Source: an uncultured Chloracidobacterium sp. (GTDB lineage: Bacteria > Acidobacteriota > Blastocatellia > Pyrinomonadales > Pyrinomonadaceae). From it: a stretch of 64,000 bases of DNA. The notes below the pieces were generated by a model. That model saw only the letters and a program-made list of their open reading frames with translations. It was not told the origin of the DNA and did not search any database. The stretch is taken from the NCBI GenBank assembly GCA_964625555.1, contig CAZVDM010000001.1, positions 13,573 to 77,572 on the forward strand, in the 5' to 3' direction. How positions within the stretch are numbered: the first letter of the stretch is position 1; each line of letters starts with the position of its first letter. Shown in pieces: positions 26,762-60,795 of the stretch. The position numbers and the translations under genes were made by a program.

Positions 26762-26769
26762 GTTTAACG

Positions 26770-26837: not shown

Positions 26838-26840
26838 ATT

Positions 26841-28082: not shown

Positions 28083-28093
28083 GAGTACTGATT

Positions 28094-28870
28094 ATGAAGA
28101 TCATTGTGTTGATGAAGCAGGTCGCTAACAAGGATGCCGTTCTACGAATCGCGGGCGACGGGAAATGGATCAATGACGCAGATATTTCGCAACAGACGAA
28201 TGAATCTGATGGCTATGCGCTCGAAGAAGCTTTGCGGACTATAGAGTCGAAAGGTGAGGGCGAAGTCGTCGTATGCACTCTCGGACCGCAATCCGCGAAG
28301 ACGGTCATCAAAGACGCGCTCGCGCGTGGGGCAGATCGTGCTATACATGTGGTTGTCGAGGACAGCAAGACCCTTTCAGCTTATCAGATCGCTTCGGCAA
28401 TCGCGGATGCGATTCGCGATGAGAACGCTGACCTGGTTTTCAGCGGGCTCCAATCGGATGATGCGAGTTATGGTCAGACGGGAGTGATACTCGCCGAATT
28501 ACTCGGTATTCCACATGCCACGATCGTGATCGAGGTCGACCGAGCAAGCCTCGGCGAGACACTTCGCGTCAAGCGTGAACTTGAGAGCGGCTGGTATCAG
28601 TGGTTTACATACAAACTGCCTTCGCTGATGACCATTCAATCCGGCATTTCACAGATACGTTATGCTTCGCTGAAGGGAATCATGGCCGCAAAGAAGAAAG
28701 AGATCCGTGACGTCACGCCATCGGCCAGCACTTTTAGCTCGGCTGCTACCATCCAAAAAGTGTATATGCCGCTCAAGACCAAACAGACTCAGATACTTGG
28801 TAACGGCGATGCAAAGGCCGGAGCGGTAGAACTCGTTAAAAGACTGAAAGACGAAGCTCGCGTTATTTAG
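28094..28870 (+). CDS. etfB: Electron transfer flavoprotein beta subunit
   Basis: The N-terminus MKIIVLMKQV and the overall ETF-beta pattern. It forms a pair with etfA downstream. Confidence 0.85.
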   Translation: MKIIVLMKQVANKDAVLRIAGDGKWINDADISQQTNESDGYALEEALRTIESKGEGEVVVCTLGPQSAKTVIKDALARGADRAIHVVVEDSKTLSAYQIASAIADAIRDENADLVFSGLQSDDASYGQTGVILAELLGIPHATIVIEVDRASLGETLRVKRELESGWYQWFTYKLPSLMTIQSGISQIRYASLKGIMAAKKKEIRDVTPSASTFSSAATIQKVYMPLKTKQTQILGNGDAKAGAVELVKRLKDEARVI

Positions 28871-29101
28871 ATCTGGCACGATATGAATTTGGACGATGCG
28901 GCTCTTGATCGAAAAGTGGCCGCTTTTTGCGCTAAGTTTGGCGAGGTAGTTCGTTTGGTCAAGATAGTCGGGTTTTATTCATCATTTGACCGTTTCTTCC
29001 AGATTTTCGACCGAAATTCCTTGTAGAAATAGCCGAGTTCGGTTATACCTATTGTCGTAGCAATTACAAATCAAAAATAAACGACTTTTGGAGGGGAAAG
29101 T

Positions 29102-30508
29102 ATGTTGGTCAAATGTATCCAAAATACGGCAGCTCTACTGTCCGTGCTTCTCATGATCCTTTTAATCGCTCCTATGTTTTCTGCGTTAGCACAAGGCGAA
29201 TGTAACGTCCAAGGGGCTCCTCTTGTGACGACCGGAGATATTTCTGTCGGCGACGCTGATCAAACGTTGCGGCTATTCCGCGACGGTCGCGGGACGACAT
29301 GTTTGTTCAACCGTGCCCAAACCACATCGGCGGGCACGTATGACCACGATCAATATACCTTTACAAACGCGACCGGCGGCCCGATCTGCGTGCAGGTCGA
29401 TCTCGATGCGACCGGATGTGGCGTCGCTACAAACCAGATCAGTATGGCCGCGTATCTTGGTTCATATAATCCGGCGAGCATTCTGACAAATGTTATCGCG
29501 GACCCGGGACTCAGTACCGGGCAGAATTTTGCGACATCAATGTCGTTCTCGGTAGCAAACGGCGCCACGTACGTTATTGTTGTACACAGCATTAATGCCG
29601 CAACGACCTGTCCGAGTTACACGTTCAAACGAACGATCACCAACAATTGCCGAAACGCCGGTTACGATGCGGCCAATGACGGAAGCGCCGATCTGGCGTT
29701 ATTCCGTCCGAGCGGTGGATTGTCGACTTGGCATACGCAGCCGTTAACCGGCGGCATCGTCAATACACAGCTTGGTTCGACGGGCGATATTCCGGTCCCG
29801 GGAGACTATACAGGTGACGAAACAAGCGACGTCGCGGTTTACCGTCCGAGCAATGGAACATGGTATACATCGACGAGTCCAGCAAATAATTACAATGCTA
29901 AATTGTGGGGAATCGCCACGGATCTTCCGGTTCAGGGCGACTATGACCGCGATGGCATTACAGACCACGCAGTTTTTCGTCCTTCCGATAATAACTGGTA
30001 TGTTCTGCGTAGTTCTGATAGCTCCTATAATGTGATATCGCTGGGAACCGCGGGAGATAAACCTGTTCCGGCTGATTACGATGGCGATGGAAAGACTGAC
30101 GTCGCGGTATTTACGCCTGCTACAGGGCTCTGGACCGTTCGCGGAAGTGCGGGAAATTACGGCTCCCTTACCATTCAGGCTCTTTGGGGGATCTCAACCG
30201 ACAGTCCTGTGCCGGCTGATTACGATGGTGACGGCAAAGCCGATTTAGCCGTATTCAGAGGGTCCGATGGATTCTGGTACATTCGGCAAAGCAGCTTGGC
30301 CGGAACGCCGCTGCGAACTTTCCAACATGGACTCGCGGGCGATATCCCTCAGCCTGCTGACTATGACGGAGACCGGAAGGACGACTTTGCGGTATTCCGT
30401 CCGTCAAATAATACTTGGTATATCAACCGAAGTACGGCCGGAATTTTCCAGACTGTTTTTGGCCAGGCGGGCGATATTCCCTCTTCGGCGGCAAATCGTA
30501 ACCCGTAA
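29102..30508 (+). CDS. Secreted FG-GAP/VCBS-repeat beta-propeller protein
   Basis: Signal peptide, followed by 6-7 repeats of the pattern GDxPVPxDYDGDGKxDxAVFRPSxGxWY. Confidence 0.75.
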   Translation: MLVKCIQNTAALLSVLLMILLIAPMFSALAQGECNVQGAPLVTTGDISVGDADQTLRLFRDGRGTTCLFNRAQTTSAGTYDHDQYTFTNATGGPICVQVDLDATGCGVATNQISMAAYLGSYNPASILTNVIADPGLSTGQNFATSMSFSVANGATYVIVVHSINAATTCPSYTFKRTITNNCRNAGYDAANDGSADLALFRPSGGLSTWHTQPLTGGIVNTQLGSTGDIPVPGDYTGDETSDVAVYRPSNGTWYTSTSPANNYNAKLWGIATDLPVQGDYDRDGITDHAVFRPSDNNWYVLRSSDSSYNVISLGTAGDKPVPADYDGDGKTDVAVFTPATGLWTVRGSAGNYGSLTIQALWGISTDSPVPADYDGDGKADLAVFRGSDGFWYIRQSSLAGTPLRTFQHGLAGDIPQPADYDGDRKDDFAVFRPSNNTWYINRSTAGIFQTVFGQAGDIPSSAANRNP

Positions 30509-30536
30509 CCGCTCTCGTTGGGAAAGCGTTCACATC

Positions 30537-30574
30537 GACCGCAGTCAGGCGTTTGTCAGACTGCGGTCTTTTTG
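30537..30574 (+). terminator. Intrinsic terminator between the FG-GAP gene and etfA
   Basis: GACCGCAGTC-aggcgtttgtca-GACTGCGGTC followed by TTTTTG. Confidence 0.7.
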
Positions 30575-30604
30575 TGATAATTAGAGATTGTCGGCCTAAA
30601 AGTT

Positions 30605-31576
30605 ATGAGCATCTTAGTATTTATCGAACACAAAGACTGCGTTCTCAACAAGACCTCGCTTGAGGCAATCGCGGCTGCGCAGGAGATCGGAAAGAGCCTT
30701 GGGCTTTCAGTTTCTGCTGTTCTACCGTGCGACAAGGATTGCTCGCTTGCTCAAGAAATTGCCGGTTATGACCTCGAAAAGGTCATTGTTGCCAAGAACG
30801 AAAAGCTCGGGACCTACACACCTGACGGTTACGCTGATGCTTGGGAGCATGTCATTAAAACAGTAAACCCGCAATACACAGTGATGTCCCACACTTATCA
30901 GGTGCGCGATTTTGCACCGAAGGTGGCGGCGCGGCTTGGTCGCGAGGTTGTCGGCGATTGCATTCGATACACGGCCGAAGGTGGAAAATTGGTACTTACG
31001 CGTCGTATTTTCCTTGGCAAACTCGACGCTGACGTCTCGATTGGCGGCGATGCTCCATATTTCGTTACGTTCCAATCTGGTTCATTCCGCGGCGATAGTG
31101 CCGCAAAGGGAAGTGCATCGGTCGAAACAATGGATGTCACCGTCGGCGAAATCCGTATGACGCCCGAAGCACCATTCCAAGAAGCAAAAGCTACAGTTGA
31201 TCTTACAAAATCAGAGATAATCGTCGCCGTCGGCCGCGGTATCAAATCGCAGGAAAATATTGCCCTTGCCCAGCAGCTAGCCGATGTTCTCGGTGCCGAT
31301 CTTGCTGCGTCTCGCCCGATCTGCGACAGCGAATGGCTGCCGATCGATCGACAGATCGGTTCGTCGGGCCAGACGGTTTCTCCAAAGGTCTATATCGCGC
31401 TAGGTATCTCCGGTGCGATCCAGCATATTGTTGGTATGAAGAACGCCGGTACGATCGTCGCAGTAAACAAAGACTCGGAAGCTCCGATCTTTGACATCGC
31501 TGACTACGGTATCGTCGGCGACCTTTTCGATGCCGTTCCCGTGATGATCGAGGAAATAAAGAAAGCAAAGGGATAG
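30605..31576 (+). CDS. etfA: Electron transfer flavoprotein alpha subunit
   Basis: 323 aa with the C-terminal FAD-binding region GISGAIQHIVGM...IVAVNKD. Confidence 0.85.
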   Translation: MSILVFIEHKDCVLNKTSLEAIAAAQEIGKSLGLSVSAVLPCDKDCSLAQEIAGYDLEKVIVAKNEKLGTYTPDGYADAWEHVIKTVNPQYTVMSHTYQVRDFAPKVAARLGREVVGDCIRYTAEGGKLVLTRRIFLGKLDADVSIGGDAPYFVTFQSGSFRGDSAAKGSASVETMDVTVGEIRMTPEAPFQEAKATVDLTKSEIIVAVGRGIKSQENIALAQQLADVLGADLAASRPICDSEWLPIDRQIGSSGQTVSPKVYIALGISGAIQHIVGMKNAGTIVAVNKDSEAPIFDIADYGIVGDLFDAVPVMIEEIKKAKG

Positions 31577-31600
31577 GAATCGACCTTGAAAGAAACAAAG

Positions 31601-31633
31601 GACGCTGAAAAGTAATTCTCACTTTTCAGCGTC
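31601..31633. terminator. Bidirectional terminator hairpin
   Basis: GACGCTGAAAAGT-aattctc-ACTTTTCAGCGTC forms a 13-bp perfect stem. It lies between convergent etfA and the aminotransferase gene. Confidence 0.65.
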
Positions 31634-31660
31634 GTTTCTGTATTTCGCGTTTATAAGTCC

Positions 31661-33016
31661 TTAGATCGAAGCGGCGATCGCTTCGTCAAAGATCTCAAGA
31701 GCAACATCGACGTGTTCTTTTGCAAGAATGAGCGGCGGCGACCAGCGGATCGTACTTGTGCCGCAGCCAAGAATTATCAGCCCGCGGTTGAAGCACGCCA
31801 TTTCAATTCGGTCTCGCAGCTCCGGCGCCGGTTTCTTGGACGCTTTGCTGTCAACGAATTCGACGCCAAGCATCATTCCAAAGCCTCGAACGTCGCCGAT
31901 ACAATCATATTTCTCCGCGAGCTTGTTCAAGCCGGCTTCAAGATATGCTCCGACATCGCGGGCGTTATCGACGAGGCCGTTTTCGAGCAGTTCAATTGTT
32001 TTCAATGCAGACGCGATCGCGACCGGATTACCGCCGAATGTCGAGGCATGTGCGCCTTTGTGCCAATCCATGATCTCGGCCTTGGCAGTGCAAACCCCGA
32101 TCGGCATTCCGGAGCCGATGCCTTTGGCCATGCAGACGATGTCGGCTTTAATGCCATCGTGATGGTCGAGGGCGAACATCTTGCCGGTTCGGCCCATACC
32201 CGACTGCACCTCATCGATGATGAGCATTATTCCGTGTTCGTCACAGATCCGGCGGAGTTCTTTTACAAACGGAGTAGGAGCCGGAACATATCCGCCTTCG
32301 CCCTGTACAACTTCGAGTATGATGCCCGCAACCTCTTCGGGCGGCGTTGTTGTCAGAAAGAGTTTCTTTTCGATCCAGTTGATACAGTCGCGAGTGATCG
32401 TCGCCTCGTCAGAAGCTTCATTGGTCACGAAATGCCTATATTTATTGGGATACGGAATGTGAACGACGTCCAATGCCTGCCGCATAAAGCCGAGCCTCTG
32501 GGCTTTTTTTGAACTCGTGAGACTCAACGCTCCCAGTGTTCGTCCGTGGAACGAACCAAAAAACGAGATGAATTTTTGACGCCGCGTGTGGTACATCGCG
32601 AGCTTCAGTGCCGTTTCGATAGCCTCTGCGCCGGAGTTGGCAAAGTGCGATTTGGTCGGCCCTTCGATCGGCACGATCTCATCGAGCTTCTTGCCGAGGG
32701 CTGGCATGTGGCGATAATAGAAATCTGTGCCGCAGAGATGTATGAGTTCGGCAGCCTGATCAGAGATCGCCTTCACGATCTCAGGATGACAATGTCCGGT
32801 CGAGCAAACGGCGACGCCGGCGTTGCAATCAAGAAAAACGTTGCCGTCGGGATCTTCGATCCAAACGCCGTATCCTTTTTCGGCGACAAGTTTATAGTCC
32901 GGCCGCGGATAGCTCGGCGTAACGTATTTCGCGTCTGCTTCGATTATTTCACGTGATCTTGGTCCAGGAAGTTCTGTTTTGATAACGGGACGCTGGAATT
33001 CTGTCGATGGTGTCAT
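31661..33016 (-). CDS. Class-III PLP aminotransferase (GabT/ArgD-like)
   Basis: 451 aa with DEVQSGMGRTG and the PLP-lysine region DIVCMAKGIGSG. Confidence 0.85.
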   Translation of the reverse strand: MTPSTEFQRPVIKTELPGPRSREIIEADAKYVTPSYPRPDYKLVAEKGYGVWIEDPDGNVFLDCNAGVAVCSTGHCHPEIVKAISDQAAELIHLCGTDFYYRHMPALGKKLDEIVPIEGPTKSHFANSGAEAIETALKLAMYHTRRQKFISFFGSFHGRTLGALSLTSSKKAQRLGFMRQALDVVHIPYPNKYRHFVTNEASDEATITRDCINWIEKKLFLTTTPPEEVAGIILEVVQGEGGYVPAPTPFVKELRRICDEHGIMLIIDEVQSGMGRTGKMFALDHHDGIKADIVCMAKGIGSGMPIGVCTAKAEIMDWHKGAHASTFGGNPVAIASALKTIELLENGLVDNARDVGAYLEAGLNKLAEKYDCIGDVRGFGMMLGVEFVDSKASKKPAPELRDRIEMACFNRGLIILGCGTSTIRWSPPLILAKEHVDVALEIFDEAIAASI

Positions 33017-33258
33017 GATATTTCTCCAAAATGGTTAAGCACACGGTCGGTGACCGCTGTCTAGTCTACGGAATGGAAACGGTCAACGACCGTTGGCTCA
33101 ACAGATCGGGAGGGTTAATCACCAGCGAAAAGATTGGCACGCTGCTTCATAGGCCGGAGTTTTGAGACGCATCGTGGTGTCATAACAAAAGATGAGCCTA
33201 ATATAACAGAATGATCGAGGGGTTTCAAAAATCTGTTGTGGCGTGAAACAATAATTTC

Positions 33259-35262
33259 ATGGAAACGACGACACGATTCACGAACCACCTCATTAATGAG
33301 ACCAGCCCATACCTGCTCCAGCACGCTTACAATCCCGTCGAATGGTATCCGTGGGGCGATGAAGCGTTTGCGTTGGCAAAAGCCGAGAATAAGCCTGTGT
33401 TGGTCAGTATCGGCTATTCGGCCTGTCACTGGTGTCATGTGATGGAGCACGAATCGTTCGAGGACGAATCTGTCGCGGCGATAATGAATGAACACTTCGT
33501 CAATATTAAGGTCGATATGGAAGAGCGTCCCGATGTCGATCAGATCTACATGAATTTCGTTCAGCTGACGACCGGTCGCGGCGGTTGGCCGATGAATGTG
33601 TTTCTGACATCGGACAAGCGGCCGTTTTTTGGTGGCACCTATTTTCCGCCCGCTCCGCGATACAACATGCCGTCGTGGCCGCAGATCTTGACGAGTATTG
33701 CAGATGCATTCCGGGATAAACGAGATGAGTTGGAAAAGTCGGCAAACGATATGGTCGCGGAATTAAGGCGGTTGAACATCGTTGATTCGGCCCCCGGCGG
33801 CCTTTCAACAGACCTCCTCGATCACGCATTCACCAGTTTTACAAGAACATCCGATTCGGTGAACGGCGGATTCGGCGGAGCGCCGAAATTCCCGCCGGCG
33901 ATGTCGCTTGAATTCCTGCTCAGATATCACCACCGAACAGGCGACGACAAGGCATTATCGATCGTGACCCACACGCTCGATAAGATGGCCCTGGGCGGAA
34001 TATATGATCAGCTCGGCGGCGGATTTCACCGCTACGCTGTCGACGCGATCTGGCTTGTGCCGCATTTTGAAAAGATGCTTTACGACAATGCACAGTTGAT
34101 ACGTGTCTATCTGCATGCTTTCCAGGTGACCGGTAGCGACCTGTACAAGCGGATCGCCGTCGAAACGCTCGGGTATATTCGGAGGGAAATGTTACATCCC
34201 TCAGGTGGATTCTATTCAACGCAAGACGCTGACAGCGAAGGCGAAGAAGGGAAGTTTTTTGTCTGGACGCCCGAAGAGATCGGGAAAATATTGGACACGG
34301 AGGACGCCCAAGCCTTTTGCGCCTTTTATGACGTGACGAAGGAAGGGAATTTTGAGGGACACAACATTCTAAACATCAAGAACACCGAAATTCCCGCTCC
34401 CGCAGATCATATACGAGCAAACATCTTTGATGAGCGTGAAAAGCGGATAAAGCCTAACCGCGACGAAAAAATACTGACGGCCTGGAACGGACTCATGCTC
34501 GCCGCATTCGCGGATGCGGCGGCCGTTTTGGCAAACGACGAATATCTCGAGATCGCTAAGCGAAATGCGGAGTTTATCGAAGAGGAATTGCAACGCAATG
34601 GAATGCTGCTAAGAACATGGAAAGATGGCCAGGCCAAGCTGAATGGCTACCTCGAAGATTATGCAAATGTTGCCGACGGACTAGTGGTCCTTTATCAGGT
34701 TTCGGGTGAAACCAAATATCTGGCAGAAGCACAGCGTCTGGCGGACCTCATGATCACCGAGTTTTGGGACGCCGACAATGGAGGATTTTTCTTTACATCA
34801 AACGACCACGAGGACTTGATTGTTCGCAATAAGGACTTCTATGACAACGCAACACCCTCCGGGAATTCTGTTGCAGCCGACGTTTTGCTTCGATTGGCTA
34901 AACTGCTGGACGATGAAAAATATGAGAGATTTGCCATCTCGGTTTTGCGGCTGACCGCAACGCAACTGCGTCGACATCCTCAAGGCTTCGGCCGTGCGCT
35001 TTCGGCACTTGAATTTCATCTGGGTGAAACAAAAGAGATCGCCGTGATCGGCGAAAAAGGAAATGAACTTGAACGAGAGATTCTGGGACGCTACTTGCCA
35101 AATACAGTTATTGCGATCTCGGACGATCCCGGGCGTGATTCGGAACTGATCCCGCTTTTGGTAGGCCGAAGCATGGAAAACGGTAAGCCGACAGCATTTG
35201 TTTGTGAGAACTTCGTATGCCAACGACCGGGGACCACAATTGAAGAACTCGATCTAAAGTAG
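33259..35262 (+). CDS. Thioredoxin-domain protein of the DUF255/YyaL family
   Basis: The N-terminus has [18 protein letters not shown]. The C-terminal part is (alpha/alpha)6 N-acylglucosamine-epimerase-like. Confidence 0.85.
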
Positions 35263-35363: not shown

Positions 35364-35621
35364 CTATTTGGTTGCAGGCTTCGCTGTGGCAGGCGTTGCA
35401 GGCTTGGTGTCTGCAGGCTTCATGGTCGACGAAGTTGCCGGTGCGGTCGTCGCCGGGGTTGCCGGTGCGGTCGTTGCCGGGGTCGCCGGTGCGGTCGTCG
35501 TCGGCGTTGCAGGCTTCACGTTGGTGTTGCCGTTCTTGTTGTTAGCTGCAGTGTCGCCGCCGCAAGCCATTCCGAGAGCGCTGAGGCCCAAAACTGCTGA
35601 TAATACAAATACTTTTGTCAT
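35364..35621 (-). CDS. Small lipoprotein with tandem ATPATTAP repeats
   Basis: Signal peptide with lipobox LGMAC. About three 24-bp tandem DNA repeats encode TTAPATPA. GGAG lies upstream. Confidence 0.6.
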   Translation of the reverse strand: MTKVFVLSAVLGLSALGMACGGDTAANNKNGNTNVKPATPTTTAPATPATTAPATPATTAPATSSTMKPADTKPATPATAKPATK

Positions 35622-48797: not shown

Positions 48798-50078
48798 ATG
48801 AGTGATGCCCTAGAACCAACCGCCCCAAAACTATCGACTGTAGACAAGCTGCGTCTATTGCTGGACATTACCAAGACCATCAGTCGTTCGCTTGATCTCG
48901 ACGAGGTTCTCAATCTTGTAATGGACACGCTCGGGTCGCTAATTCCATACGACGCGGCCGGGATCTATCTCATAGAATTTGGAGCCGAAGAAAAGAGCCC
49001 TTACGTTTTCAAATCAAAGGTAATTCGCGGCTATCAGATCAGTTTTGACCTGATCGAACCGCGACTGAAGATCGGCGAGGGCTTTCTCGGAACGGTCGCT
49101 CAGACCGGCAAGCCGATCATCTCGCACGATGTGAGCAAGGACGAGCGATATTTCGCGGCACGCGAACTGACAAAGTCCGAAATGCTCTGTCCTATCATCT
49201 CGAATGAACACGTCATCGGTGTCTTCGATCTCGAAAGCGACAGCCTTGACGCATATTCGGAAGACGACCTCGAGGTAATGCAGCTCCTCACATCGCAGGT
49301 CGCTATCATTATTGAAAAGGTTAGGCTCCATGACGAGGTCGTTGAGAAAAAGCGTATACAGGCGCAGCTCGAGATCGCTCGATCGGTCCAACTCGAGCTG
49401 CTGCCCGAAAATGACCCCGTCGTTCCAAATTTCGACATCAGTGCGTATGTTTTTCCGACCGAGGAAGTTTCCGGCGACTATTACGACTGGGTCAAGGTGT
49501 TTGACGATCAGGTCGGTATAGTTGTCGCGGATGCGGTCGGAAAGGGAATTCCGGCGGCTCTGCTGATGTCGTTCTTGCGGGCGTGCTTGAGGTCGTGCGT
49601 ACAGATCGGATATGCACCGCACATTGCTTTTTCAAAGGTGAGCAATTTGCTGCGCGATTCGATCGAGGACAATCAATTCATTACCGCGATATACGGGCTT
49701 CTCGATTCGACCAACAAAACATTTGTATTCTCGAACGCCGGCCATAATCCGCCTCTGCTGATCCAGCCGGACGGCGAATACCGCTTCGTCGAATACGGTG
49801 ATATGCCGTTGGGGATGTTCGATGATATCCATTATCACCAGCACTTCATCCGTTTTGTGCCTGGCATGGTGATGGTTATCTATACCGACGGCATTACCGA
49901 AGCTGCCAATCCGAATGGCGAGGAATATGGAAATGAACGTTTCGCCGCGCGCGTCCTAGATGGCATCGATATGCCTGCAAAAAAGATGATCGACCACATA
50001 CGAAAAGGCGTGGCCGATTTTACCGAACGCAAGTTTCTAGACGATGACGGAACGTTGTTTATCGTCAAAGCGGAGTAG
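48798..50078 (+). CDS. GAF domain plus PP2C/SpoIIE-type serine phosphatase (RsbU-like)
   Basis: An N-terminal GAF domain followed by a C-terminal SpoIIE domain (SGDYYDW ... DGITEA ... DDGTLFIV). Confidence 0.85.
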   Translation: MSDALEPTAPKLSTVDKLRLLLDITKTISRSLDLDEVLNLVMDTLGSLIPYDAAGIYLIEFGAEEKSPYVFKSKVIRGYQISFDLIEPRLKIGEGFLGTVAQTGKPIISHDVSKDERYFAARELTKSEMLCPIISNEHVIGVFDLESDSLDAYSEDDLEVMQLLTSQVAIIIEKVRLHDEVVEKKRIQAQLEIARSVQLELLPENDPVVPNFDISAYVFPTEEVSGDYYDWVKVFDDQVGIVVADAVGKGIPAALLMSFLRACLRSCVQIGYAPHIAFSKVSNLLRDSIEDNQFITAIYGLLDSTNKTFVFSNAGHNPPLLIQPDGEYRFVEYGDMPLGMFDDIHYHQHFIRFVPGMVMVIYTDGITEAANPNGEEYGNERFAARVLDGIDMPAKKMIDHIRKGVADFTERKFLDDDGTLFIVKAE

Positions 50079-50081
50079 GCT

Positions 50082-50149
50082 AGTAAAGAGTAAAAGTGAA
50101 AGAGTGAAAAAGTATCGCGAGATAAACTCGAACTTTTTCACTCTTTCAC
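50082..50149. repeat. Hairpin of inverted 8-mer arrays (GTGAAAGA units)
   Basis: GTGAAAGAGTGAAAAAGT (50096-50113) and ACTTTTTCACTCTTTCAC (50132-50149) form a perfect 18-bp inverted repeat. There are extra AGTAAAG units on the left. Confidence 0.75.
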
Positions 50150-50186
50150 AGTTTCCGAGCGTTTGTTCAGTTGTTGGAAATTGCTA

Positions 50187-50444
50187 TCAATGTGCCGTCA
50201 GCGAGCAATGGACAAAATCACCACCCGGTACGACCGGGGTTCGGTAGTCGTTGTAGTTGATCTTGTCATTACCCGTCGAGAAAGCGTAAATGTCAAACCC
50301 GTAGGCGTCAAGAAAATCTGTCAGTTCGCCCGAACGGTCGAGATAGATCGTCTCAGCAAATCCCAGCTCTTGACGAATTTGCAGCAGCCGCTCAATTACT
50401 TCGAGCGGTGCGAAACAAATATCCGGATCTTTGAAAGTAGCCAT
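50187..50444 (-). CDS. Hypothetical small acidic protein
   Basis: 85-aa ORF with more protein-like composition than the overlapping plus-strand ORF. It has no clear RBS and no recognised family. Confidence 0.35.
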   Translation of the reverse strand: MATFKDPDICFAPLEVIERLLQIRQELGFAETIYLDRSGELTDFLDAYGFDIYAFSTGNDKINYNDYRTPVVPGGDFVHCSLTAH

Positions 50445-50645
50445 AAGGGAAAAGCCATTTTTCAGGCAGCCGGTCTCGCTTGCCCGGCATCTGATTAGAG
50501 TACGGTCAATGCAATTTGGTTGTTCGCAAAAACTCTCGAATTTTCATCAAATTGCACGCATCCGGAAAATTGAACGAAAATAATGGAAGTTTTTGCCGAA
50601 AAAGCATAAGATTGTGTCATACGACACTTCCCTAAGGAGATCATC

Positions 50646-51779
50646 ATGACCATCAAATCAATTCGGTTCGCATTTTGTATCGCAATGACAATGTGCCTCG
50701 GCACGGTTCTGATAGCTCAGGATCGCCGCGTGCTCTCAGCAGCCGGTGATAAATACGTGATCTCAGCAAATGCCGGCGGCGTCAATTTTACTGAAGGTGC
50801 AGTAACCGTCATCCGAAAGGAAGGCCGCAGCGGCGTACTCCTTAAGGGCGACCAGATCGAGATCGGCGATCGCGTCTCGACCGGAGCTGAAGGCAAGGTC
50901 GAGATCTTGTTAAATCCCGGTTCGTACGTTCGGCTTGGTTCAAATTCGACTTTCGAATTCAAAACGACCTCGCTCGATGATCTCAAGTTACGTGTAGACA
51001 GCGGTTCTGCGATGTTCGAGGTTTTTGCGACCAACGAATTTAAGGTCACAGTTTTCACGCCGAAGGGTCAGGTGACTTTGGTTGACACGGGCATATATCG
51101 TGTTGACGTTTCGTCGAGCGGCTCCGCGAAAGTATCAGTGTGGGACGGATTTGCTGAGCTTTCTGATGGAAGCAGCAGGGTCAAAAAGGGCCGTGCAGTG
51201 ACCGTCGGCAACGGTGCTCCATCGATCGCGAAGTTTGACCGTGACGAAATGGATGCTCTTGCGATCTGGAGTAAAGAACGCGGAAAAATGCTCTCGAAGG
51301 CAACGGCTTCTCTAAAGAATAAAGTTGTTCGAGATTCACTTATCAATGCATACAACGGCGGCCGTTGGGGCATGTTCGATGCGTTTGGGTTATGGATCTA
51401 TAGTTCGCAGTTTGGCGGGCATTGTTTCTTGCCGTTTGGACGCGGTTGGTATTCGCCCTATGGATATTGGTTTGGAAATAACATCTGGTGGTACGATCTA
51501 CCGACGGTGATCTATTATCCTCCTATGCCGACACCCAGCATTTTTGGAACAAAGAATCGCAGCCGCGAGGATGAGATCGGCGGCGGTGGTGGTGGCGGCA
51601 ATTCGCTTCCGCCTTTCGTTCGTGTTCAGGAGGGGATCAAGACAAATAATCCGATCCGCGAACCGGCTGACATCAATAACAACAACAATACGGACCGTTC
51701 GCCCGTTTTCTTTCCGTCAACGCCATCGGTCGTGACCGCCGTACCGTCGCCGACCGGAACAAAGACGCGAGATAACTGA
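50646..51779 (+). CDS. Secreted FecR-domain protein
   Basis: Signal peptide and AAGGAG upstream. The FecR-like beta domain contains GDRVSTGAEGKVEILLNPGSYVRLGSNSTFEF. The C-terminus is rich in Gly, Trp and Tyr. Confidence 0.7.
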   Translation: MTIKSIRFAFCIAMTMCLGTVLIAQDRRVLSAAGDKYVISANAGGVNFTEGAVTVIRKEGRSGVLLKGDQIEIGDRVSTGAEGKVEILLNPGSYVRLGSNSTFEFKTTSLDDLKLRVDSGSAMFEVFATNEFKVTVFTPKGQVTLVDTGIYRVDVSSSGSAKVSVWDGFAELSDGSSRVKKGRAVTVGNGAPSIAKFDRDEMDALAIWSKERGKMLSKATASLKNKVVRDSLINAYNGGRWGMFDAFGLWIYSSQFGGHCFLPFGRGWYSPYGYWFGNNIWWYDLPTVIYYPPMPTPSIFGTKNRSREDEIGGGGGGGNSLPPFVRVQEGIKTNNPIREPADINNNNNTDRSPVFFPSTPSVVTAVPSPTGTKTRDN

Positions 51780-51799
51780 GGTTGGTATCCTTGAAAGTC

Positions 51800-51836
51800 A
51801 AAAGGCGGGAGAATTCGATTTCTCCCGCCTTTTTTA
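51800..51836. terminator. Bidirectional intrinsic terminator
   Basis: AAA-AGGCGGGAGA-attcgatt-TCTCCCGCCT-TTTTT lies between convergent genes. Confidence 0.75.
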
Positions 51837-52697
51837 TTTGATCAAGTGAAAAAACACGCCGGGGTCAGGCGGCCTATCCAATTCACCAGTCATTGAGCCC
51901 AATACAAGCAGGAGCGATTGAATTCCGTTAAATAGCGTGTGCAAGATGATGCACGGCAGCAGATTTTTGGTCCAAACCCGCAAACCGGTGAGGATCACAC
52001 TGAGTAAACCAAGCAGAAGGATCGTCGAATAGCTAGGATAATATTGCGGCACATGAACGATTGCGAACATTAGCGTTACGATCAAAAACGCAGCCGGCAC
52101 GCCGACTGTCCGCTGAAACGCCGAATACAGAACGCCTCGATAGATAACCTCTTCTATAAGCGGAGCGGTAAACGTCGCGAGAAATGCGACGATGTAGACA
52201 GCCGATCTCGACGACCTTAACATTCTGATCAGATCGTTTTCCTGCTCGGGGAAATAGTTGCCGACCACGACGGCGATCGCGGCAAATGCAACCAGGATCG
52301 CAGGATAATGCCACCACGAAATGCCTCCCGCCTTCCATCCGAGCGTCTTTGTAAAGGAATATTTTCGAAATCTGGTCACGACCAGCCATGCGACCAGCAG
52401 TGTCAGCAGATGGGCCGGAATGATCGAGACGATCTGCAAAATGATCGCGAATGGATCATTTTTGGCGAATTCGACCAACGCTTCGCTTTCTGTGATCGGC
52501 GGATCGAGCGTCAGAGCATACGGCAACAAGAACAGTGAAGGGACAATAATGATCAACAGAACGCTGATGAACCACGTGCCGACCGCTACCCAGCCATTCC
52601 ACGGCGGATCGTTTGGTGTAGGTTCGACGTCCGGTCCTATCTGATTGTCGCGAGGATTCAACGGTCGATAGTCGAGAGTTTGTTCGATATTTTCCAC
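51834..52697 (-). CDS. CPBP family intramembrane glutamic endopeptidase (CAAX/Abi)
   Basis: Contains EEVIYRG, FAIVH and LHTLFN motifs in a polytopic membrane protein. Confidence 0.8.
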   Translation of the reverse strand: MENIEQTLDYRPLNPRDNQIGPDVEPTPNDPPWNGWVAVGTWFISVLLIIIVPSLFLLPYALTLDPPITESEALVEFAKNDPFAIILQIVSIIPAHLLTLLVAWLVVTRFRKYSFTKTLGWKAGGISWWHYPAILVAFAAIAVVVGNYFPEQENDLIRMLRSSRSAVYIVAFLATFTAPLIEEVIYRGVLYSAFQRTVGVPAAFLIVTLMFAIVHVPQYYPSYSTILLLGLLSVILTGLRVWTKNLLPCIILHTLFNGIQSLLLVLGSMTGELDRPPDPGVFFHLIK

Positions 52698-52784
52698 GAG
52701 AGTGAGTTTAGCGAATCAAGGTTTAACTTCAAAACTCGATTTCAATCTTGCTATTTCATCTAAATACAGATAACCTAAAATCCC

Positions 52785-53588
52785 GTGGAGTTACACGGGA
52801 AAATCCAACAACAATTAGTCATCGCGATCATACCGGCACGTTACGGTTCTATCCGTTTGCCTGGGAAGATGTTGCTCGATATCGCTGGTAAACCGTTGAT
52901 CCTGCATACGTTAGCTCAAACGCAAAAGGCGAGAAATGTTGAGCGTGTGATCGTTGCTACCGACGATCGGCGAATATTGGATGTTGTGAATCAAAGCGGC
53001 GGAGAGGCAGTGATGACCTCGCCCGACCACCATTCAGGCAGCGACCGTTTGGCTGAGGTCGCCGAAACGCTGCCCGCGGGTTCGATCATTGTAAATGTAC
53101 AAGGCGACGAACCGACGATCTCGCCGCTGACCATCGAGGCGGCGGTGGACGCGCTCGTCAATGACGATTCGGCAGACATGTCGACGACGTGTGAAAACAT
53201 CCAAAGCATCGACGACCTAATGAATGGCAACCTCGTTAAGGTGGTAACGAATGACGCGGGCTACGCAGTCTTTTTTTCGCGTTCGCCAATACCATATCCG
53301 AGGGATGCAGCGTTAGCACACGGTGGAACGGAAAGAGCTCTGTACGAAAAACCTGAGCTACTGTCGCTGTTTCGAAAACATACCGGGCTTTATGCGTATC
53401 GCCGCGAGTTTTTGCTCAAATTTACCGCGATGCCTCAGACGAGACTCGAAAGAATTGAGATGCTCGAGCAATTGAGGGCGTTGGAGAATGGTGCGAAGAT
53501 AAAGGTGGTGGAGGTCGATCAGCAGTCGATCGGCGTTGACACATTAGAAGACTTTCAATTGATCAGAACGATGCTCTCGGGAACGTAG
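52785..53588 (+). CDS. kdsB: 3-deoxy-manno-octulosonate cytidylyltransferase
   Basis: IIPARYGSIRLPGK ... VNVQGDEP ... RSPIPY motifs. GTG start. Confidence 0.9.
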   Translation: MELHGKIQQQLVIAIIPARYGSIRLPGKMLLDIAGKPLILHTLAQTQKARNVERVIVATDDRRILDVVNQSGGEAVMTSPDHHSGSDRLAEVAETLPAGSIIVNVQGDEPTISPLTIEAAVDALVNDDSADMSTTCENIQSIDDLMNGNLVKVVTNDAGYAVFFSRSPIPYPRDAALAHGGTERALYEKPELLSLFRKHTGLYAYRREFLLKFTAMPQTRLERIEMLEQLRALENGAKIKVVEVDQQSIGVDTLEDFQLIRTMLSGT

Positions 53589-53590
53589 TT

Positions 53591-53860
53591 ATGGGTGACT
53601 GGATCGGGCTTGGATTTTTTGTCCTTCTAATTGTCAGTGCGATCGTCGCGTTGAAAATCCTTAGCAAACCGCGTGTATCTAGTTCGGATGAATTTGAGCG
53701 AAACGCAGCAGAAGGCACGACGGCGCTCGGAGCTACAATGAACGCTTTGCAGGAACTAATGGATCCGGCCGAGGCAAAGGCGAAAGAAGTAATTGCGCAG
53801 ATGAAGGAAGGTAACTTCCAGAAGAAAAAGCGGGAAGGGAAGGCGGAAGGGGAAGATTGA
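53591..53860 (+). CDS. Small membrane-anchored protein
   Basis: 89 aa with one N-terminal TM helix. It starts 2 nt after the kdsB stop. Confidence 0.45.
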   Translation: MGDWIGLGFFVLLIVSAIVALKILSKPRVSSSDEFERNAAEGTTALGATMNALQELMDPAEAKAKEVIAQMKEGNFQKKKREGKAEGED

Positions 53861-53863
53861 GTT

Positions 53864-55653
<1,790 letters not shown>

Positions 55654-55686
55654 GCCCAAACTGCCGGTTGATGGGAAATTTGAAAT

Positions 55687-56490
55687 ATGAGAGTGCTGTT
55701 AGCGATCACAGTATTAGTCATGCTCAATATCAGTACTTTCGCCCACGAATACTGGTTTGAGTATGACAATTTCTTTTCGCGTGTAAACGAACGGACGGAC
55801 CTTCGCCTTTTTGTCGGTTCGGCTCTGAAGAAAGAAGAGGAGCGAACGTATCAAGCGTCGAAAACTGATTCATTTCAGATGTTCTCAGCCGGCGAGGTAT
55901 TTGATGTGCGGCCGCTTGCCGAAGACGGTAGATCGCCGATACTTAAATTCGCCTCAGATCATGCAGGAACATTCCTGTTGTCGATGGAACGGAACTGGTC
56001 GTATATCAAGCTCGATGCAGACAAATTTGACGAATATCTCCGTGAGGACGGAATGGAGTACATAATAGCCGAACGCAAACGTCTCGGCGAATCGGCAAAA
56101 GAAGGCCGTGAACGCTATTCGCGTTATCTGAAAACACTTATCCAGGTCGGCGACAGCCGCACGGGTTCGGCAAAAACGCGTGTCGGATCAAAGATCGAGA
56201 TCGTCCCGCTCGAGAATCCATATTCCAAAAAGGTCGGTGACAATCTGAAACTGCAGGTCTATTTCTCGGGCTTTCCGCTTGCCGATCGAGCTGTTGTTGC
56301 CGACAACCGTGACGGTGAAAATTACTCGTCGCAGAAATTCTCTACGGACAAAGACGGCAAATTCACCGTAAAACTCATGAATAAAGGCGTCTGGCTAATT
56401 CGACTTGTACATATGCAGCGATGCGCTAAGAACTGTGGAGACGTTGATTGGGAGAGCTTTTGGGGTGCATTGACGTTTGGTCTGAGATAG
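55687..56490 (+). CDS. DUF4198 domain periplasmic protein
   Basis: The signal peptide is followed directly by HEYWFE, which is typical of mature DUF4198/NikM-like N-termini. Confidence 0.7.
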   Translation: MRVLLAITVLVMLNISTFAHEYWFEYDNFFSRVNERTDLRLFVGSALKKEEERTYQASKTDSFQMFSAGEVFDVRPLAEDGRSPILKFASDHAGTFLLSMERNWSYIKLDADKFDEYLREDGMEYIIAERKRLGESAKEGRERYSRYLKTLIQVGDSRTGSAKTRVGSKIEIVPLENPYSKKVGDNLKLQVYFSGFPLADRAVVADNRDGENYSSQKFSTDKDGKFTVKLMNKGVWLIRLVHMQRCAKNCGDVDWESFWGALTFGLR

Positions 56491-56517
56491 AGAAAAAGAT
56501 AATTAACCACATATAAA

Positions 56518-56580
56518 GCACAGATATACACGGATTTTGGATTGATTTTATCTGTGCTAATCTGTGTGCATCCGTGGTGC
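56518..56580. repeat. Hairpin of inverted ~9-mer arrays (ATCYGTG units)
   Basis: AGCACAGATA TACACGGAT ... ATCTGTGCT AATCTGTGTGC ATCCGTGGTG. It overlaps the GTG at 56574, which favours the ATG at 56589 as the kdsA start. Confidence 0.65.
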
Positions 56581-56588
56581 CCTTCGAT

Positions 56589-57404
56589 ATGCAAGTATTT
56601 GATGTAAGTAAAGTGAGATTCGGCGACGGCCGCTTGTCGTTCATTCTGGGCCCTTGCGTCGTCGAGTCGGCCAAGCACGCAATGTTTATGGCGCAGGAGA
56701 TAAAGGATATATGCGCCAATGTCGGCGTCGATTTTGTGTACAAATCATCGTTTGACAAAGCAAATCGAAGCTCGATCGAGAGTTTTCGGGGGCAGGGAAT
56801 GGAGTTTGGTCTCGAGGTCTTGGCTCAGGTGAAGAGCGAAGTCGACGTGCCTGTGATCACAGACGTTCACGAACCGTGGCAATGTGAAAAGGCCGCCGAG
56901 GTCGCGGATATGCTGCAGATCCCGGCGTTTTTGTGCCGTCAGACAGATCTGCTCGTTGCCGCGGCGAAGACCGGCAAAGCGGTGAATGTTAAGAAAGGCC
57001 AATTTCTCGCTCCGTGGGATTGTAAGAATATAGTCGATAAATTGAGCGAAGCCGGATGTGAGAAGATATTGCTTACCGAACGCGGAGCGAGTTTCGGCTA
57101 CAATAATCTCGTTGTCGATCTGCGATCGTTCCCGATAATGCGTGAGTTTGGCGTGCCCGTTGTATTTGACGTGACGCATTCGCTGCAGTTGCCGGGTGGA
57201 CTTGGCAAGGCAACGGACGGGCAGGGGCAATACATCGAAAACTTTGCTCGCGCCGGTGTTGCATGCGGTGTTGATGCTGTTTTCATGGAGGTCCACGACA
57301 ACCCCGCGAAAGCTCCTAGCGATGGGCCGAACCAATTGCCCCTCAGCCGGTTGGAAAAGCTTTTGACCAAACTCCGTGAGATCCATTCGATCGTAAACTC
57401 GTGA
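56589..57404 (+). CDS. kdsA: 3-deoxy-8-phosphooctulonate synthase
   Basis: [34 protein letters not shown] and FDVTHSLQ motifs. Confidence 0.9.
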
Positions 57405-57409
57405 TCACA

Positions 57410-59668
57410 ATGAAGAAACTTCGCTTAACTATTTGTCTCGTTATCGTCTTACTATTGACTTCCGCGCTTGTTGCGCAGGACGAGACGCGTTCTGCCGCAA
57501 CCTGGCGAGTGCAAAAGTACGACATCGAGGCAACGTTGCCGGCTTCGGAACGTGAGCGCGTATTGACCTCTAGAGCATCGTTGGAATTGATGAACGTATC
57601 GAGCAGACCGGCTACGACGCTGACGCTCAGGATCGGTACGAATGCTGAGGTTACAGGCATCAAGATAAACGGATCGGTAGTCGAGTTTTCCAAGAGCGAA
57701 GAAAAGATAAATGCAAGTTCGAGTCTCCAGCGAAATGTGGTCCGTTTGCCTGCGGCCGCAGCGGGTTCGGTCATTACCGCTGTTGTTGAGTATAAGCTGA
57801 CTCTCAAAGACAATTCGGGTGTCAGTTCGATATCACCTGCAGGGGCTCATTTCTTGCCGCTTTCGTTTTGGTATCCGACTCCGAATAGCTGGTTTTACGG
57901 CCGAGGTGCGGACTCGGCGCCCGTCAGAATAAAGGTTATCGCGCCCGGCGGCCAGACGGCGATCGCGTCAGGAACCGAGGCGGGCGGATCATTCGATCAG
58001 AAATTAGGTTCCCAGCCATTTTTTGCGACCGGGCATTGGGATGTTTCAAATTCAAACGGCGTAGCTGTCTTCGCTCCAAAAAGCACGTCTGCCGAGGGGC
58101 TCAAACGCGCGTCGGAGATGTCGGCGATCGTCGCCGAGGCACGAGCATTCACAGTAGGATATCTGGGAAGCTCTCCTGATGTGCCGCTCCGAATTGTCGC
58201 GGTCCGGCGCGGAGCGGGATATTCGAGTGCGGGAACGATCTTGGTCGACGAAGCGGTATTTCGACGGTCAAAGGTCGATTCGCTTACGGCAATGATCCTA
58301 GCTGAATCCGCCGTTAGGACATGGATAGGAGGGTCTATCGCTGCTACAGGCGACGGTTATGGAGTCGTTCGCGAGGGGCTGACCCGCCTAATCGCGACTG
58401 AGTTTCTAGAATCCAAATTCGGCAAAGATGTCGCCGACATCGAACGATTGCGGCAGCGGACCGCTTATGCCGCGATCTCAAAACGTGATGCACCGATGAG
58501 CCGGACCTCGCCGCTTGATGATTTTTATTTTCCTGAAGTCGCGAATAAAGGTGCAATGGCCTGGCGATTGATCGCAAAACGGGTCGGGCCGGCCGAATTT
58601 TCAAGGATCCTGAAAGCAAATGCACTCGACGGTGACCTGACCGTGTCAGAACTAAGGAACGCATTCGCAGAAAACAAAGAACTTATTGACTACCTTTTTG
58701 ACCAAGTAACGGAAATGAATTTGCTGGTCGGATTGCCGCAAATCTCCGGCGGCGATGCGAAGGTCGCGCTCCGCAACACCGGAGCGATTGATGCCACTGT
58801 CACTGTTCGAGCGACCTTGCAGTCCGGCTCGCCGATTGAATCATCCACGACGTTGAAATCGCTTAGTTTTGGCGAGATCACGTTTAAGACGACAAGCAAG
58901 ATCACACGCGTCGAGATCGATACTGACAAGCTTTACCCGCAGATCGAATATTCTGACGACGTCGCACCTCGCGAATCGACCGACAGCGATCCGCTGCTAA
59001 CCGTGAAGCGAGCTTTCGACAAACAGGATTTTGGCGGTGCCGAAACGGCCGCGAAGATAATTCTCCGTGATCTGCCGCGATTTGATGAGGTCCGTACGTA
59101 CCTCGGACGGGCATTAATTGCCCAGAATAGAAATGCCGAAGCGGAAAGAGAGTTTAAGACAGTACTGGACGAAAAGTCGCCTAACGCCCGCAGCCTTGGC
59201 TGGGCAAACGTCGGTTTGGCACAAGCCGCGTCAGCTGCAAACCAAAACGATCTGGCGATACGATACGCCGAAGCTGCGATCATTGCCGATGCGGACTTCG
59301 GCGCTTCGTTTGCGGCTAGAAACTTAAGGGCCAAAGTCGTTTCCGGCGTCGCCGTCGATGCGAGCGTCAATAAATTCTTCGCGGATTTTGATCGTGCCGC
59401 CGCGTCAAACCGCAAGGCGGAACTCGACGCAATGTTTTTGGCGGGCGAGGCCACCAAGTTCGTAAGCGGTATTTCGGGTTCGACGGAACAATGGCAAACG
59501 CAGGTACGGAGTGTAGATCGCCTTGACAGCAACACAGTTCTGGTCGAGACTATGCTGAACATCAAGCTGCTGACCAAGGAACCGGAGTCAGGCACCGCAG
59601 TTTATCGGCTGATTCGAGTGGGATCCGGGTGGAAGGTCGCGGCGGTCGAGATGTTTGAGGTCAGATAG
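57410..59668 (+). CDS. Exported M1-aminopeptidase-like pseudoenzyme with TPR and NTF2-like C-terminal parts
   Basis: Signal peptide MKKLRLTICLVIVLLLTSALVAQ. GAGYSSAGTIL aligns with GAMENxGL, and ILAESAVRTWIGG aligns with HExxHxW, with both His residues lost. REGLT aligns with the third-ligand region. Confidence 0.6.
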   Translation: MKKLRLTICLVIVLLLTSALVAQDETRSAATWRVQKYDIEATLPASERERVLTSRASLELMNVSSRPATTLTLRIGTNAEVTGIKINGSVVEFSKSEEKINASSSLQRNVVRLPAAAAGSVITAVVEYKLTLKDNSGVSSISPAGAHFLPLSFWYPTPNSWFYGRGADSAPVRIKVIAPGGQTAIASGTEAGGSFDQKLGSQPFFATGHWDVSNSNGVAVFAPKSTSAEGLKRASEMSAIVAEARAFTVGYLGSSPDVPLRIVAVRRGAGYSSAGTILVDEAVFRRSKVDSLTAMILAESAVRTWIGGSIAATGDGYGVVREGLTRLIATEFLESKFGKDVADIERLRQRTAYAAISKRDAPMSRTSPLDDFYFPEVANKGAMAWRLIAKRVGPAEFSRILKANALDGDLTVSELRNAFAENKELIDYLFDQVTEMNLLVGLPQISGGDAKVALRNTGAIDATVTVRATLQSGSPIESSTTLKSLSFGEITFKTTSKITRVEIDTDKLYPQIEYSDDVAPRESTDSDPLLTVKRAFDKQDFGGAETAAKIILRDLPRFDEVRTYLGRALIAQNRNAEAEREFKTVLDEKSPNARSLGWANVGLAQAASAANQNDLAIRYAEAAIIADADFGASFAARNLRAKVVSGVAVDASVNKFFADFDRAAASNRKAELDAMFLAGEATKFVSGISGSTEQWQTQVRSVDRLDSNTVLVETMLNIKLLTKEPESGTAVYRLIRVGSGWKVAAVEMFEVR

Positions 59669-60720: not shown

Positions 60721-60795
<75 letters not shown>

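Follow-up and report, generated by a model that had tools for sequence, protein, structure and literature searches.

Hairpins with inverted tandem-repeat arms in Pyrinomonadaceae: a family-wide class and its possible origin by remodelling in place

Background

Can hairpins that share a way of construction, with a different repeat unit in each copy, belong to one class, and how would such a class arise? This question is raised by a 64,000-nucleotide stretch of DNA from an uncultured Chloracidobacterium sp., a soil acidobacterium (Pyrinomonadaceae; contig CAZVDM010000001.1), hereafter the window. The element at 50082-50149 was flagged in an earlier note as the best example of hairpins whose arms are inverted arrays of 7-9-nt tandem repeats, and further copies were listed there. 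When the window was compared with related genomes, the inverted tandem-array hairpins proved to be a real, family-wide class in Pyrinomonadaceae. The class is fast-evolving and probably mostly non-functional.

Array hairpins in the window

Detection combined a hairpin-first scan with Tandem Repeats Finder (TRF). For the window scan, ungapped stems with a score of at least 12 and a loop of at most 120 were accepted, and arms were called periodic at a cut-off of at least 0.78 for periods of 7-9. Fifteen strong hairpins (score of at least 12) were observed, compared with a mean of 0.96 in 24 dinucleotide shuffles. Five of these have periodic arms of 7-9 nt (starting at 3725, 6802, 11459, 26769 and 50096) and the shuffles contained none; the class is real and not random. 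The element starting at 4238 is borderline on the periodicity cut-off, and overall five to seven of the 15 hairpins can be counted as having 7-9-nt tandem arrays for arms. TRF reported 16 arrays with a period of 6-11 in the window versus 2.1 per shuffle (50 shuffles), and 7 arrays scoring at least 40 versus 0.06. A 50-kb control from E. coli K-12 gave two hairpins, no periodic hairpin and three weak arrays.

The well-formed array hairpins have fold z-scores from -5.5 to -7.4, and the loops of the window elements measure 5-98 nt. The copies that the earlier note listed at 3725, 4235, 6767, 11458 and 26770 proved real, with z-scores in the same range. When arms were matched across elements of the window, scores were at most 8, versus 14-22 within six of the seven elements (the 56518 element reaches only 8 ungapped). 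At the gathering score, the only Rfam 15 match in the window was a tRNA (60721-60792), and no element was matched.

The flagged hairpin consists of GTGAAAGAGTGAAAAAGT (50096-50113) paired with ACTTTTTCACTCTTTCAC (50132-50149), which are 100 % complementary over 18 nt and enclose an 18-nt loop; the perfect inverted repeat is as first described. A period-7/8 array (AGTRAAAG units) runs over 50082-50114, and its end forms the left arm. The RNA fold of the element reaches -29 kcal/mol, with z-scores of -5.9 on the plus strand and -7.2 on the minus strand. On one side of it, a GAF-SpoIIE phosphatase gene (48798-50078, +) ends with its stop codon; on the other lies the 3' end of an 85-aa open reading frame (ORF; 50187-50444, -) in convergent orientation. 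Hairpins are given here without a strand unless one is stated.

Syntenic contigs were fetched via near-identical proteins (L042, with 97.1 % DNA identity, L043, L045, L046 and L130-L134; L numbers denote loci of other genomes). Orthologues of the flagged hairpin are present in L130, L132, L133 and L134, where the neighbouring proteins are 91-96 % identical. The L132 orthologue has a 22-bp perfect stem with the same arm sequence as the window, and the arms are changed in L130. In each of L130, L132 and L133, the loop (50114-50131) is replaced by a different one, in most cases palindromic itself, with nearly constant arms. Judged from the sequence, this replacement may represent spacer inversion or renewal at the hairpin apex. 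Individual copies of the class may have been co-opted, and the flagged one, lying between convergent genes with conserved arms, would be an example.

Occurrence across Pyrinomonadaceae

When the glnE protein of the window was used as a query, 41 loci were retrieved, all from Pyrinomonadaceae or Pyrinomonadales (Acidobacteriota), with 45-70 % identity and one partial match of 82 %. The sequence of these relatives (629 kb) contained 119 strong hairpins, 14 of which are periodic-armed, with units that are all different. Short-period arrays numbered 154 in 693 kb; 57 of them have an inverted partner within 600 nt and 4 a direct partner, which is a 14-fold bias. The inverted partners are mostly 3-110 nt away, and 42 of the 72 strong arrays are inverted-paired.

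Hairpins from a single locus (L018, L021 and L027) carry different units. The units AATCCGC, ACGCAAAG, ATTCCAA, AAAGTTC and GAGAAGAG recur in several species, at non-orthologous sites. The proposal that the construction principle alone is conserved thus stands within the 64 kb, where no cross-matches were found, but not across the family, where units recur.

Array hairpins within glnE and an RluA-family gene

Two elements lie within conserved genes of essential enzymes. The glnE ORF (6542-9382, -) encodes 946 aa, and its homologues align across residues 1-941. The split hairpin at 6761-6956 (-) is composed of a (GAGACGG)n arm at 6761-6827 and a complementary arm at 6904-6956 (arms of about 45 nt, loop of 77-98 nt). 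These arms are two separate in-frame insertions, VGEDNETGDKRREKGEQ and roughly SLSPVSSLPSPVSLPPSPVSS, and a native conserved segment, NPRSTAAMLDKL, lies between them. With native coding sequence between them, the arms did not enter as a single piece. Most glnE homologues are without either insertion. At the same two linkers (site 1), GAGAAGAG-like arms are present in L043 and L045, a one-armed state in L001 and L002, and none in L046. A short perfect palindrome, TTCCGAATTCGGAA, occurs in the insertion-free glnE of L046 exactly where its relatives have the first hairpin arm. In a second glnE loop (site 2, after DLDLVxVYD), orthologous in-frame array hairpins were found in L022, L038, L021 and L031, a one-armed array in L029 and nothing in L025.

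The RluA-family ORF (11090-12046, +), encoding a pseudouridine synthase, is full length compared with 26 syntenic homologues. Its hairpin (11459-11543, +) has GGAGGAGT array arms of 34 nt that are 88 % complementary (-61 kcal/mol, z -7.2) and, as an in-frame insertion, adds about 27 codons to the loop that separates YLN from the RPGLPHRLD motif. Both intragenic copies are therefore in-frame insertions, and the coding tolerance ascribed to the class holds for each.

In relatives, the same RluA-family loop carries hairpins of unrelated sequence: (GAGAAGAG)n in L008 and L018, (GCGGAAY)n with a 40-bp stem in L028, another hairpin in L006, and an element like a REPIN (a hairpin of repetitive extragenic palindromic, REP, sequences) in L024, L001 and L002. 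Two non-complementary arrays are found in L009, and five loci are empty. When the nearest relatives are compared, the window has its array hairpin in this loop, L043 a related hairpin that has decayed, and L045 a REPIN-like element; L046 is empty there, and its native GAGGGCGGCGAC is purine-rich like the window array at this site. On a protein tree of 120 homologues, the insertion classes are interspersed. One-armed 'NSAFRTPHSALI' forms also occur in the rluA-family protein.

The REPIN-like family, with the core GAACCGCCTGCGTAAGCGGGCGG, is represented in the window at 5361-5402 (a single copy, 5368-5390, -) and at 12030-12109 (an inverted doublet, 12032-12107). The doublet overlaps the rluA-family stop codon, so that the protein ends ...RSEPPA. 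This peptide is the one encoded by the in-frame REPIN-like element in relatives (SEPPAVAGG...PPATAGGSD).

Intergenic elements and turnover between relatives

The comparison of orthologous regions advised in the earlier note revealed gain, loss and unit-number change, all among close relatives. The hairpin at 3722-3796 (arms 3722-3756 / 3771-3796), with CACGAATTN array arms of 21 nt that are 95 % complementary (z -6.4), is flanked by two genes on the minus strand, one hypothetical (3793-4194) and one of the TMEM175 family (3136-3729). It is absent from the orthologous site in L043, L045 and L046. The hairpin at 4235-4343 (arms 4235-4285 / 4293-4343), with GCGGATNNN array arms of 51 nt that are 75 % complementary (-58.8 kcal/mol, z -7.4), lies between divergent genes, upstream of a cysteine-synthase-like PALP gene that really starts at about 4363. 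This GCGGAT array hairpin is common to the window and L043. In the L043 copy, the right arm is longer by one 9-nt unit (GCTTCATCC), and the left arm has changed without compensation. At the orthologous site upstream of the PALP gene, L046 has no hairpin, and L045 has an unrelated one of about 130 nt without array arms (3400-3530; the 212-nt region folds at -94.7 kcal/mol).

The two unlike array hairpins at 3722-3796 and 4235-4343 bracket a 133-aa ORF (3793-4194, -) without a Pfam match (the Pfam scan covered 20 ORFs of the window). This ORF is conserved in L043, L045 and L046 (125-155 aa), even where the hairpins are absent.

The element at 26766-26836 has AATGGAT/CCATTNT array arms of 29 nt that are 83 % complementary (z -5.5) and separates acpP (about 26522-26761, as deduced from L042 gene calls) from fabF (26841-28082). 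It is identical in the strain contig L042. As this contig covers only 23459-34624 and its one element is identical, no within-species turnover is visible.

The other listed copies were of mixed quality. The element at 56518-56580 does have array hairpin units (CACRGAT / ATCYGTG, spaced about 10 nt), but it is weak, with no more than a modest fold (z -2.6). Its neighbours are a DUF4198 gene and a DAHP_synth_1-family gene (PF00793; a family-level assignment). L133 has kept the element, and L130 has ATCCTGNNN x3 together with a T-run there. In L132, an insertion of three small genes (17760-18754), one of which has an HNH endonuclease domain, separates the DUF4198 and DAHP_synth_1-family genes at this position. 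Just upstream of pyrG, a GGGAAG array (53830-53855) is followed by a 25-bp palindrome (53861-53885 / 53896-53920); the compound palindrome reported at 53864-53918 is indeed strong (z -8.2), but its arms are not tandem arrays. Of the two supposed one-armed arrays, that at 1604-1641 (+) is true: a GTCAGTT array, seen as a 14-nt unit, lies in the 41 nt that separate an ABC-2 permease gene from a DUF1349 gene, with no inverted partner within 600 nt. It is shorter in L045 and L043, so its copy number varies. The array at 23418-23483 (+), downstream of a dihydroorotate dehydrogenase gene, is poor (65 % matches to TGTGGACAG-like units, score 33), and no inverted partner was found for it.

Co-directional gene pairs flank the elements at 1604, 3722, 26766 and 56518, the genes are divergent at 4235 and convergent at 50082, and the elements at 6761-6956 and 11459-11543 are intragenic. 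A terminator scan of 49000-57500 called none of the elements at 50082, 53861 and 56518; an ordinary terminator at 51800-51833 was called.

Orthologous hairpins also differ in their units. At glnE site 2, both arms consist of AGATTCC in L022, AAGTCCA in L038 and AAGTTCC in L021, and at site 1 the unit is GAGACGG in the window and GAGAAGAG-like in L043 and L045. Complementarity between arms was greater within than across species at all three orthologous sites tested, which indicates that the arms evolve in concert. The arms change together and are more alike than under independent mutation, as expected for products of quasi-palindrome template switching.

PF05635 genes between inverted heptamer arrays

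In L002 (1179-1618) and L011 (2244-2683), inverted (GATTGCG)4.6 and (AATCCGC)4.6 arrays flank a 118-aa gene of the Pfam family PF05635 (S23p, the intervening-sequence protein of 23S rRNA). This cassette is an insertion of about 400 nt that replaces an intrinsic terminator hairpin present in L009, L003 and L035, and its right array is now translated as an N-terminal extension of the downstream gene. By tblastn and the family hidden Markov model (HMM), a PF05635 gene was absent from the window and from the 48 loci of relatives except L002 and L011.

PF05635 homologues were surveyed in 80 metagenomic loci (L049-L128), 66 of which have complete 160-nt flanks. An inverted repeat between the flanks was found in 55 of the 66 loci and was heptamer-periodic in 51, compared with 1/168 and 0/168 in shifted controls. 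The flanking arms have 4-5 units each (medians 4.4 and 4.6). Their orientation is largely fixed: of 61 cases, 50 have the G-rich array upstream on the coding strand. The units vary (ATTGCGG in 16, AATGCGG in 11, and many singletons), and the unit group GATTGCG/GAATGCG is tied to PF05635. The same contigs contain 19 gene-less periodic hairpins in 262 kb, often with the unit of the cassette (ATTTATT in L108; GATTGCG in L082, L087 and L114). The co-distributed protein that the earlier note suggested looking for thus has a candidate in PF05635, but not in the form of a RAYT-like nuclease (RAYT, REP-associated tyrosine transposase).

PF05635 genes are known to occur in a scattered fashion inside cas loci (PMC3936711), and the family is related to Avd, a protein of diversity-generating retroelements (PMC10053308). 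According to a passage in PMC4990558 (citing Lin 2006), S23p is a homopentamer, and the 4-5 heptamers of each cassette arm match this reported pentameric state of the PF05635 protein. We found no literature on PF05635 genes flanked by inverted heptamer arrays outside rRNA, which is not proof of absence.

Origin of the hairpins

We give an even chance to the reading that array hairpins arise and change mostly in place, by slippage plus arm-to-arm template switching. Replication slippage would form a short array, often from locally purine-rich or simple sequence, and an intramolecular template switch would then lay down an inverted copy, a few to about 100 nt away. Further slippage would alter the unit number, and repeated template switching from arm to arm (quasi-palindrome correction) would keep the arms alike, with the result that each locus would drift to its own unit. 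The elements would persist where they do little harm, that is, in intergenic spacers and, if in frame and free of stops, in permissive surface loops of proteins. When the split arms, the one-armed states, the unit-number changes and the shared unit turnover are taken together, in-place origin and remodelling are the best fit. Slippage with template switching from arm to arm accounts for all four and also for the 14-fold excess of inverted over direct partners. The inconsistent gene positions, presence/absence and uncompensated decay argue against one common function. The local slippage and template switching put forward in the earlier note are plausible and in part supported, since they agree with the comparative data (unit number, shared units, split glnE arms), but we infer the enzymatic steps themselves, and likewise the lack of function.

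Several points weigh against remodelling in place. The joint change of the arms, from which template switching is deduced, could equally stem from selection for pairing, and the conserved arms of the flagged hairpin, the loop of which is replaced, could indicate selection on the stem. The same families of units turn up again in other species and at sites that are not orthologous. In addition, very close relatives bear unrelated hairpins, including a REPIN-like one, at exactly the same rluA-family codon, which looks like repeated insertion. The local model gives no reason for the arms being arrays rather than arbitrary sequence, and it leaves PF05635 genes between inverted arrays of narrow size (4-5 units) unaccounted for. 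It is because of the array arms, the same-codon hits in the rluA-family gene and the unexplained PF05635 arrays that a trans-acting model keeps standing, and the PF05635 family or another trans-acting factor may be involved in array hairpins.

In such a model, which we consider less likely than remodelling in place, the hairpins would be gene-less relatives of the PF05635 cassette that are spread or maintained in trans, as MITEs (miniature transposable elements with inverted repeats) are by insertion sequences (IS) or REPINs by RAYTs. The arrays would be putative binding sites, with about one heptamer per subunit of a pentameric, four-helix-bundle, Avd-like protein. The flanking inverted repeats (55/66, heptameric in 51/66, versus 1 and 0 of 168 controls) speak for this model, together with the 4-5 units per arm, the largely fixed orientation (50/61) and the homopentamer reported for S23p in the passage mentioned above. 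Gene-less hairpins on the same contigs often share the unit of the cassette, the cassette of L002 and L011 is an insertion that displaced a terminator, the window element at 4235 has GCGGAT units resembling the cassette arrays, and the rRNA intervening sequence of Coxiella has the same parts (PMC4990558). However, the HMM found no PF05635 gene in the window or in the relatives' loci beyond L002 and L011, most window units (GAGACGG, GGAGGAGT, AATGGAT, AGTGAAAG) are unlike GATTGCG, and the glnE arms flank native sequence. The family is also without a known mobility mechanism or enzymatic activity, and that the protein binds the arrays is conjecture. It is quite unlikely, in our estimate, that the hairpins are functional cis-acting RNA or DNA structures (bidirectional terminators, 3'-end stabilisers, RNase III sites or attenuators) in which selection keeps the stems and periodicity is a by-product. 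The flagged hairpin would suit such a role, since it lies between convergent genes and its arms are conserved at 91-96 % neighbour-protein identity as the loop changes; so would the element between acpP and fabF and the L002 cassette, which sits where a terminator used to be. Stems of 18-45 bp are also of the size of RNase III substrates, and the stems of rRNA intervening sequences are cut by this enzyme (PMC4990558). Against this, positions relative to genes are inconsistent, two elements are translated within enzymes, presence varies in close relatives, the L043 copy decays without compensation, and there is no Rfam match. Most elements are without a GC-rich stem and T-tract, and the terminator scan of 49000-57500 picked out 51800-51833 but no element.

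Ordinary MITE or REP/REPIN families, which would look unrelated if 64 kb samples one copy of each diverged family, are a very unlikely source. A genuine REPIN-like family does occur in the window (5368-5390 and 12032-12107) and has entered the same rluA-family loop in L024, L001, L002 and L045; the insertion classes are interspersed on the rluA-family protein tree, and units recur across species and sites. But the window elements share no sequence pairwise, orthologous copies undergo unit turnover, the glnE arms flank native coding sequence, and when filled and empty sites were compared, neither target-site duplications nor defined ends were seen. The probability of chance matches or assembly artefacts is negligible: the one point in favour is that most sequences come from metagenome assemblies, and the shuffles, the E. 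coli control, the presence of the same elements in independent assemblies and the reading frames kept through the elements argue against it. We consider it unlikely, finally, that array hairpins, PF05635 cassettes and 23S rRNA intervening sequences are one phenomenon, in which hairpins would start at sites that tolerate them and then lengthen in place through slippage and template switching from arm to arm, and pentameric PF05635 would recognise single-stranded arrays of 4-5 heptamers and promote or exploit them. If true, this would supply a concrete, testable origin of rRNA intervening sequences and tell what a very large, Avd-related orphan family does.

Some identities for the class were rejected. 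A terminator identity was dismissed as the scan of 49000-57500 calls none of its elements and two others are intragenic, and a single MITE or REP family as arms have no cross-element matches in the window. Insertion of one unit in the manner of a MITE does not fit glnE, where the arms flank native sequence, and a comparison of filled with empty sites elsewhere showed no duplication. Selection for low-complexity linkers at the level of the protein gives no reason for the DNA arms to be complementary. In the case of CRISPR-like arrays, regular-sized spacers are missing.

Comparison with known repeat systems

The earlier note knew of no description of the inverted, coding-tolerant form; it is already known from Xanthomonas and Geobacter. 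In Xanthomonas, inverted pairs of GGGAATC tandem heptamers occur at 70-75 per genome, some of them in coding sequence (Rehm et al. 2015, PMC4692102). As in the present elements, convergent opposite-strand arrays lie close together, can form stem-loops and vary strongly in length and sequence among close relatives (PMC4692102). However, they belong to one G-rich, quadruplex-capable unit family, whereas here, in another phylum, there is a unit per locus, with periods of 7-9 nt and mostly not G-rich. Geobacter metallireducens has tandem 7-9-mers (3-5 units) paired on opposite strands at variable distance, and an intragenic heptamer element (Aklujkar et al. 2009, PMC2700814). The opposite-strand pairing and the heptamer arrays within genes are shared with our elements, but the Geobacter pairs fall into three or four multi-copy consensus families (24, 21 and 8 pairs) (PMC2700814). 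Those sites were read as binding sites of global regulators, with IS elements at a fixed distance (PMC2700814). Same-unit arrays close by on opposite strands, the trait common to both systems, were found here as well (57/154 inverted versus 4 direct); the few consensus units shared by all copies were not found in the window or in L018, L021 and L027. The claims of full sequence independence and of novelty of the inverted, coding-tolerant form were overstated.

Dispersed heptamers of the short tandemly repeated repetitive (STRR) type were reportedly described in cyanobacteria by Mazel et al. in 1990. Dispersed 7-nt tandem arrays of this kind are present here (16 in the window; 154 in 693 kb). 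The STRR type is further marked by a few fixed units in about 100 copies per genome; in the 64 kb each unit is different, but across species units recur. Direct TAACTGA arrays are known from Beggiatoaceae and cyanobacteria, and like our elements they are dispersed tandem heptamers, mostly intergenic and often just upstream of start codons (PMC4679880). They differ in being overwhelmingly direct with few fixed units, and one inverted case was found in 170 TAACTGA sets (PMC4679880).

The 23S rRNA intervening sequences (Coxiella, Leptospira) resemble the array hairpins in having a long inverted-repeat stem and heptameric repeats (PMC4990558). That of Coxiella carries an S23p ORF with a variable number of heptameric repeats beside it, RNase III cuts its terminal inverted repeats, and its origin was called unclear (PMC4990558). 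The window elements differ as they are outside rRNA and have no ORF in the loop (5-98 nt).

Template switching is known to create, homogenise and lengthen inverted repeats, also in coding sequence, and can invert the spacer (PMC8794818, PMC7202029, PMC8604942, PMC13100816). The likeness to the present arms is evident, but quasi-palindrome template switching was described as single events at arbitrary sequences, and here it would concern a genome-wide class with tandem-array arms. Coding palindromes are known in nematomorph mitochondria (PMC6649704). REP sequences and REPINs (PMC3116915) are likewise short hairpin-forming repeats. Many copies of one conserved palindrome, as in REP/REPIN families, were not observed among the array hairpins of the window (arm scores of at most 8). 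The Rickettsia palindromic elements of Ogata et al. (2000) are also said to be short, hairpin-forming and inserted in frame into protein loops. The REPIN-like family described above shows the same behaviour in the rluA-family loop. Both REP/REPIN and Rickettsia elements are conserved sequence families, unlike the array hairpins, which share no sequence between window loci.

In Pyrinomonadaceae, repeat-armed hairpins are remodelled fast enough for the steps to show between relatives, as in the split in-frame arms around native glnE sequence and the hot spot in the RluA-family pseudouridine synthase. This lineage is a natural system for template-switch mutagenesis and for the birth of protein insertions. 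For annotation, the class is a caution: conserved proteins are made longer by these elements, which can also pass for regulatory structures. The strong association of PF05635 with inverted arrays of 4-5 heptamers offers a handle on the origin of rRNA intervening sequences and on the role of an abundant four-helix-bundle family.

Other repeats in the window

A hairpin without array arms was also found at 10938-11057 (31-nt arms, 87 % complementary, 58-nt loop). The 673-aa ORF at 9422-11443 is over-extended, because its relatives have 492-498 aa, and the hairpin is truly intergenic, between a sigma-54 activator gene and the rluA-family gene. Two tandem repeats of longer period stand outside the hairpin class: a 24-nt unit repeated 3.2 times at 35434-35510 (GTTGCCGGTGCGGTCGTCGCCGGG, TRF score 126) and a 21-nt unit repeated 3.4 times at 5535-5604.

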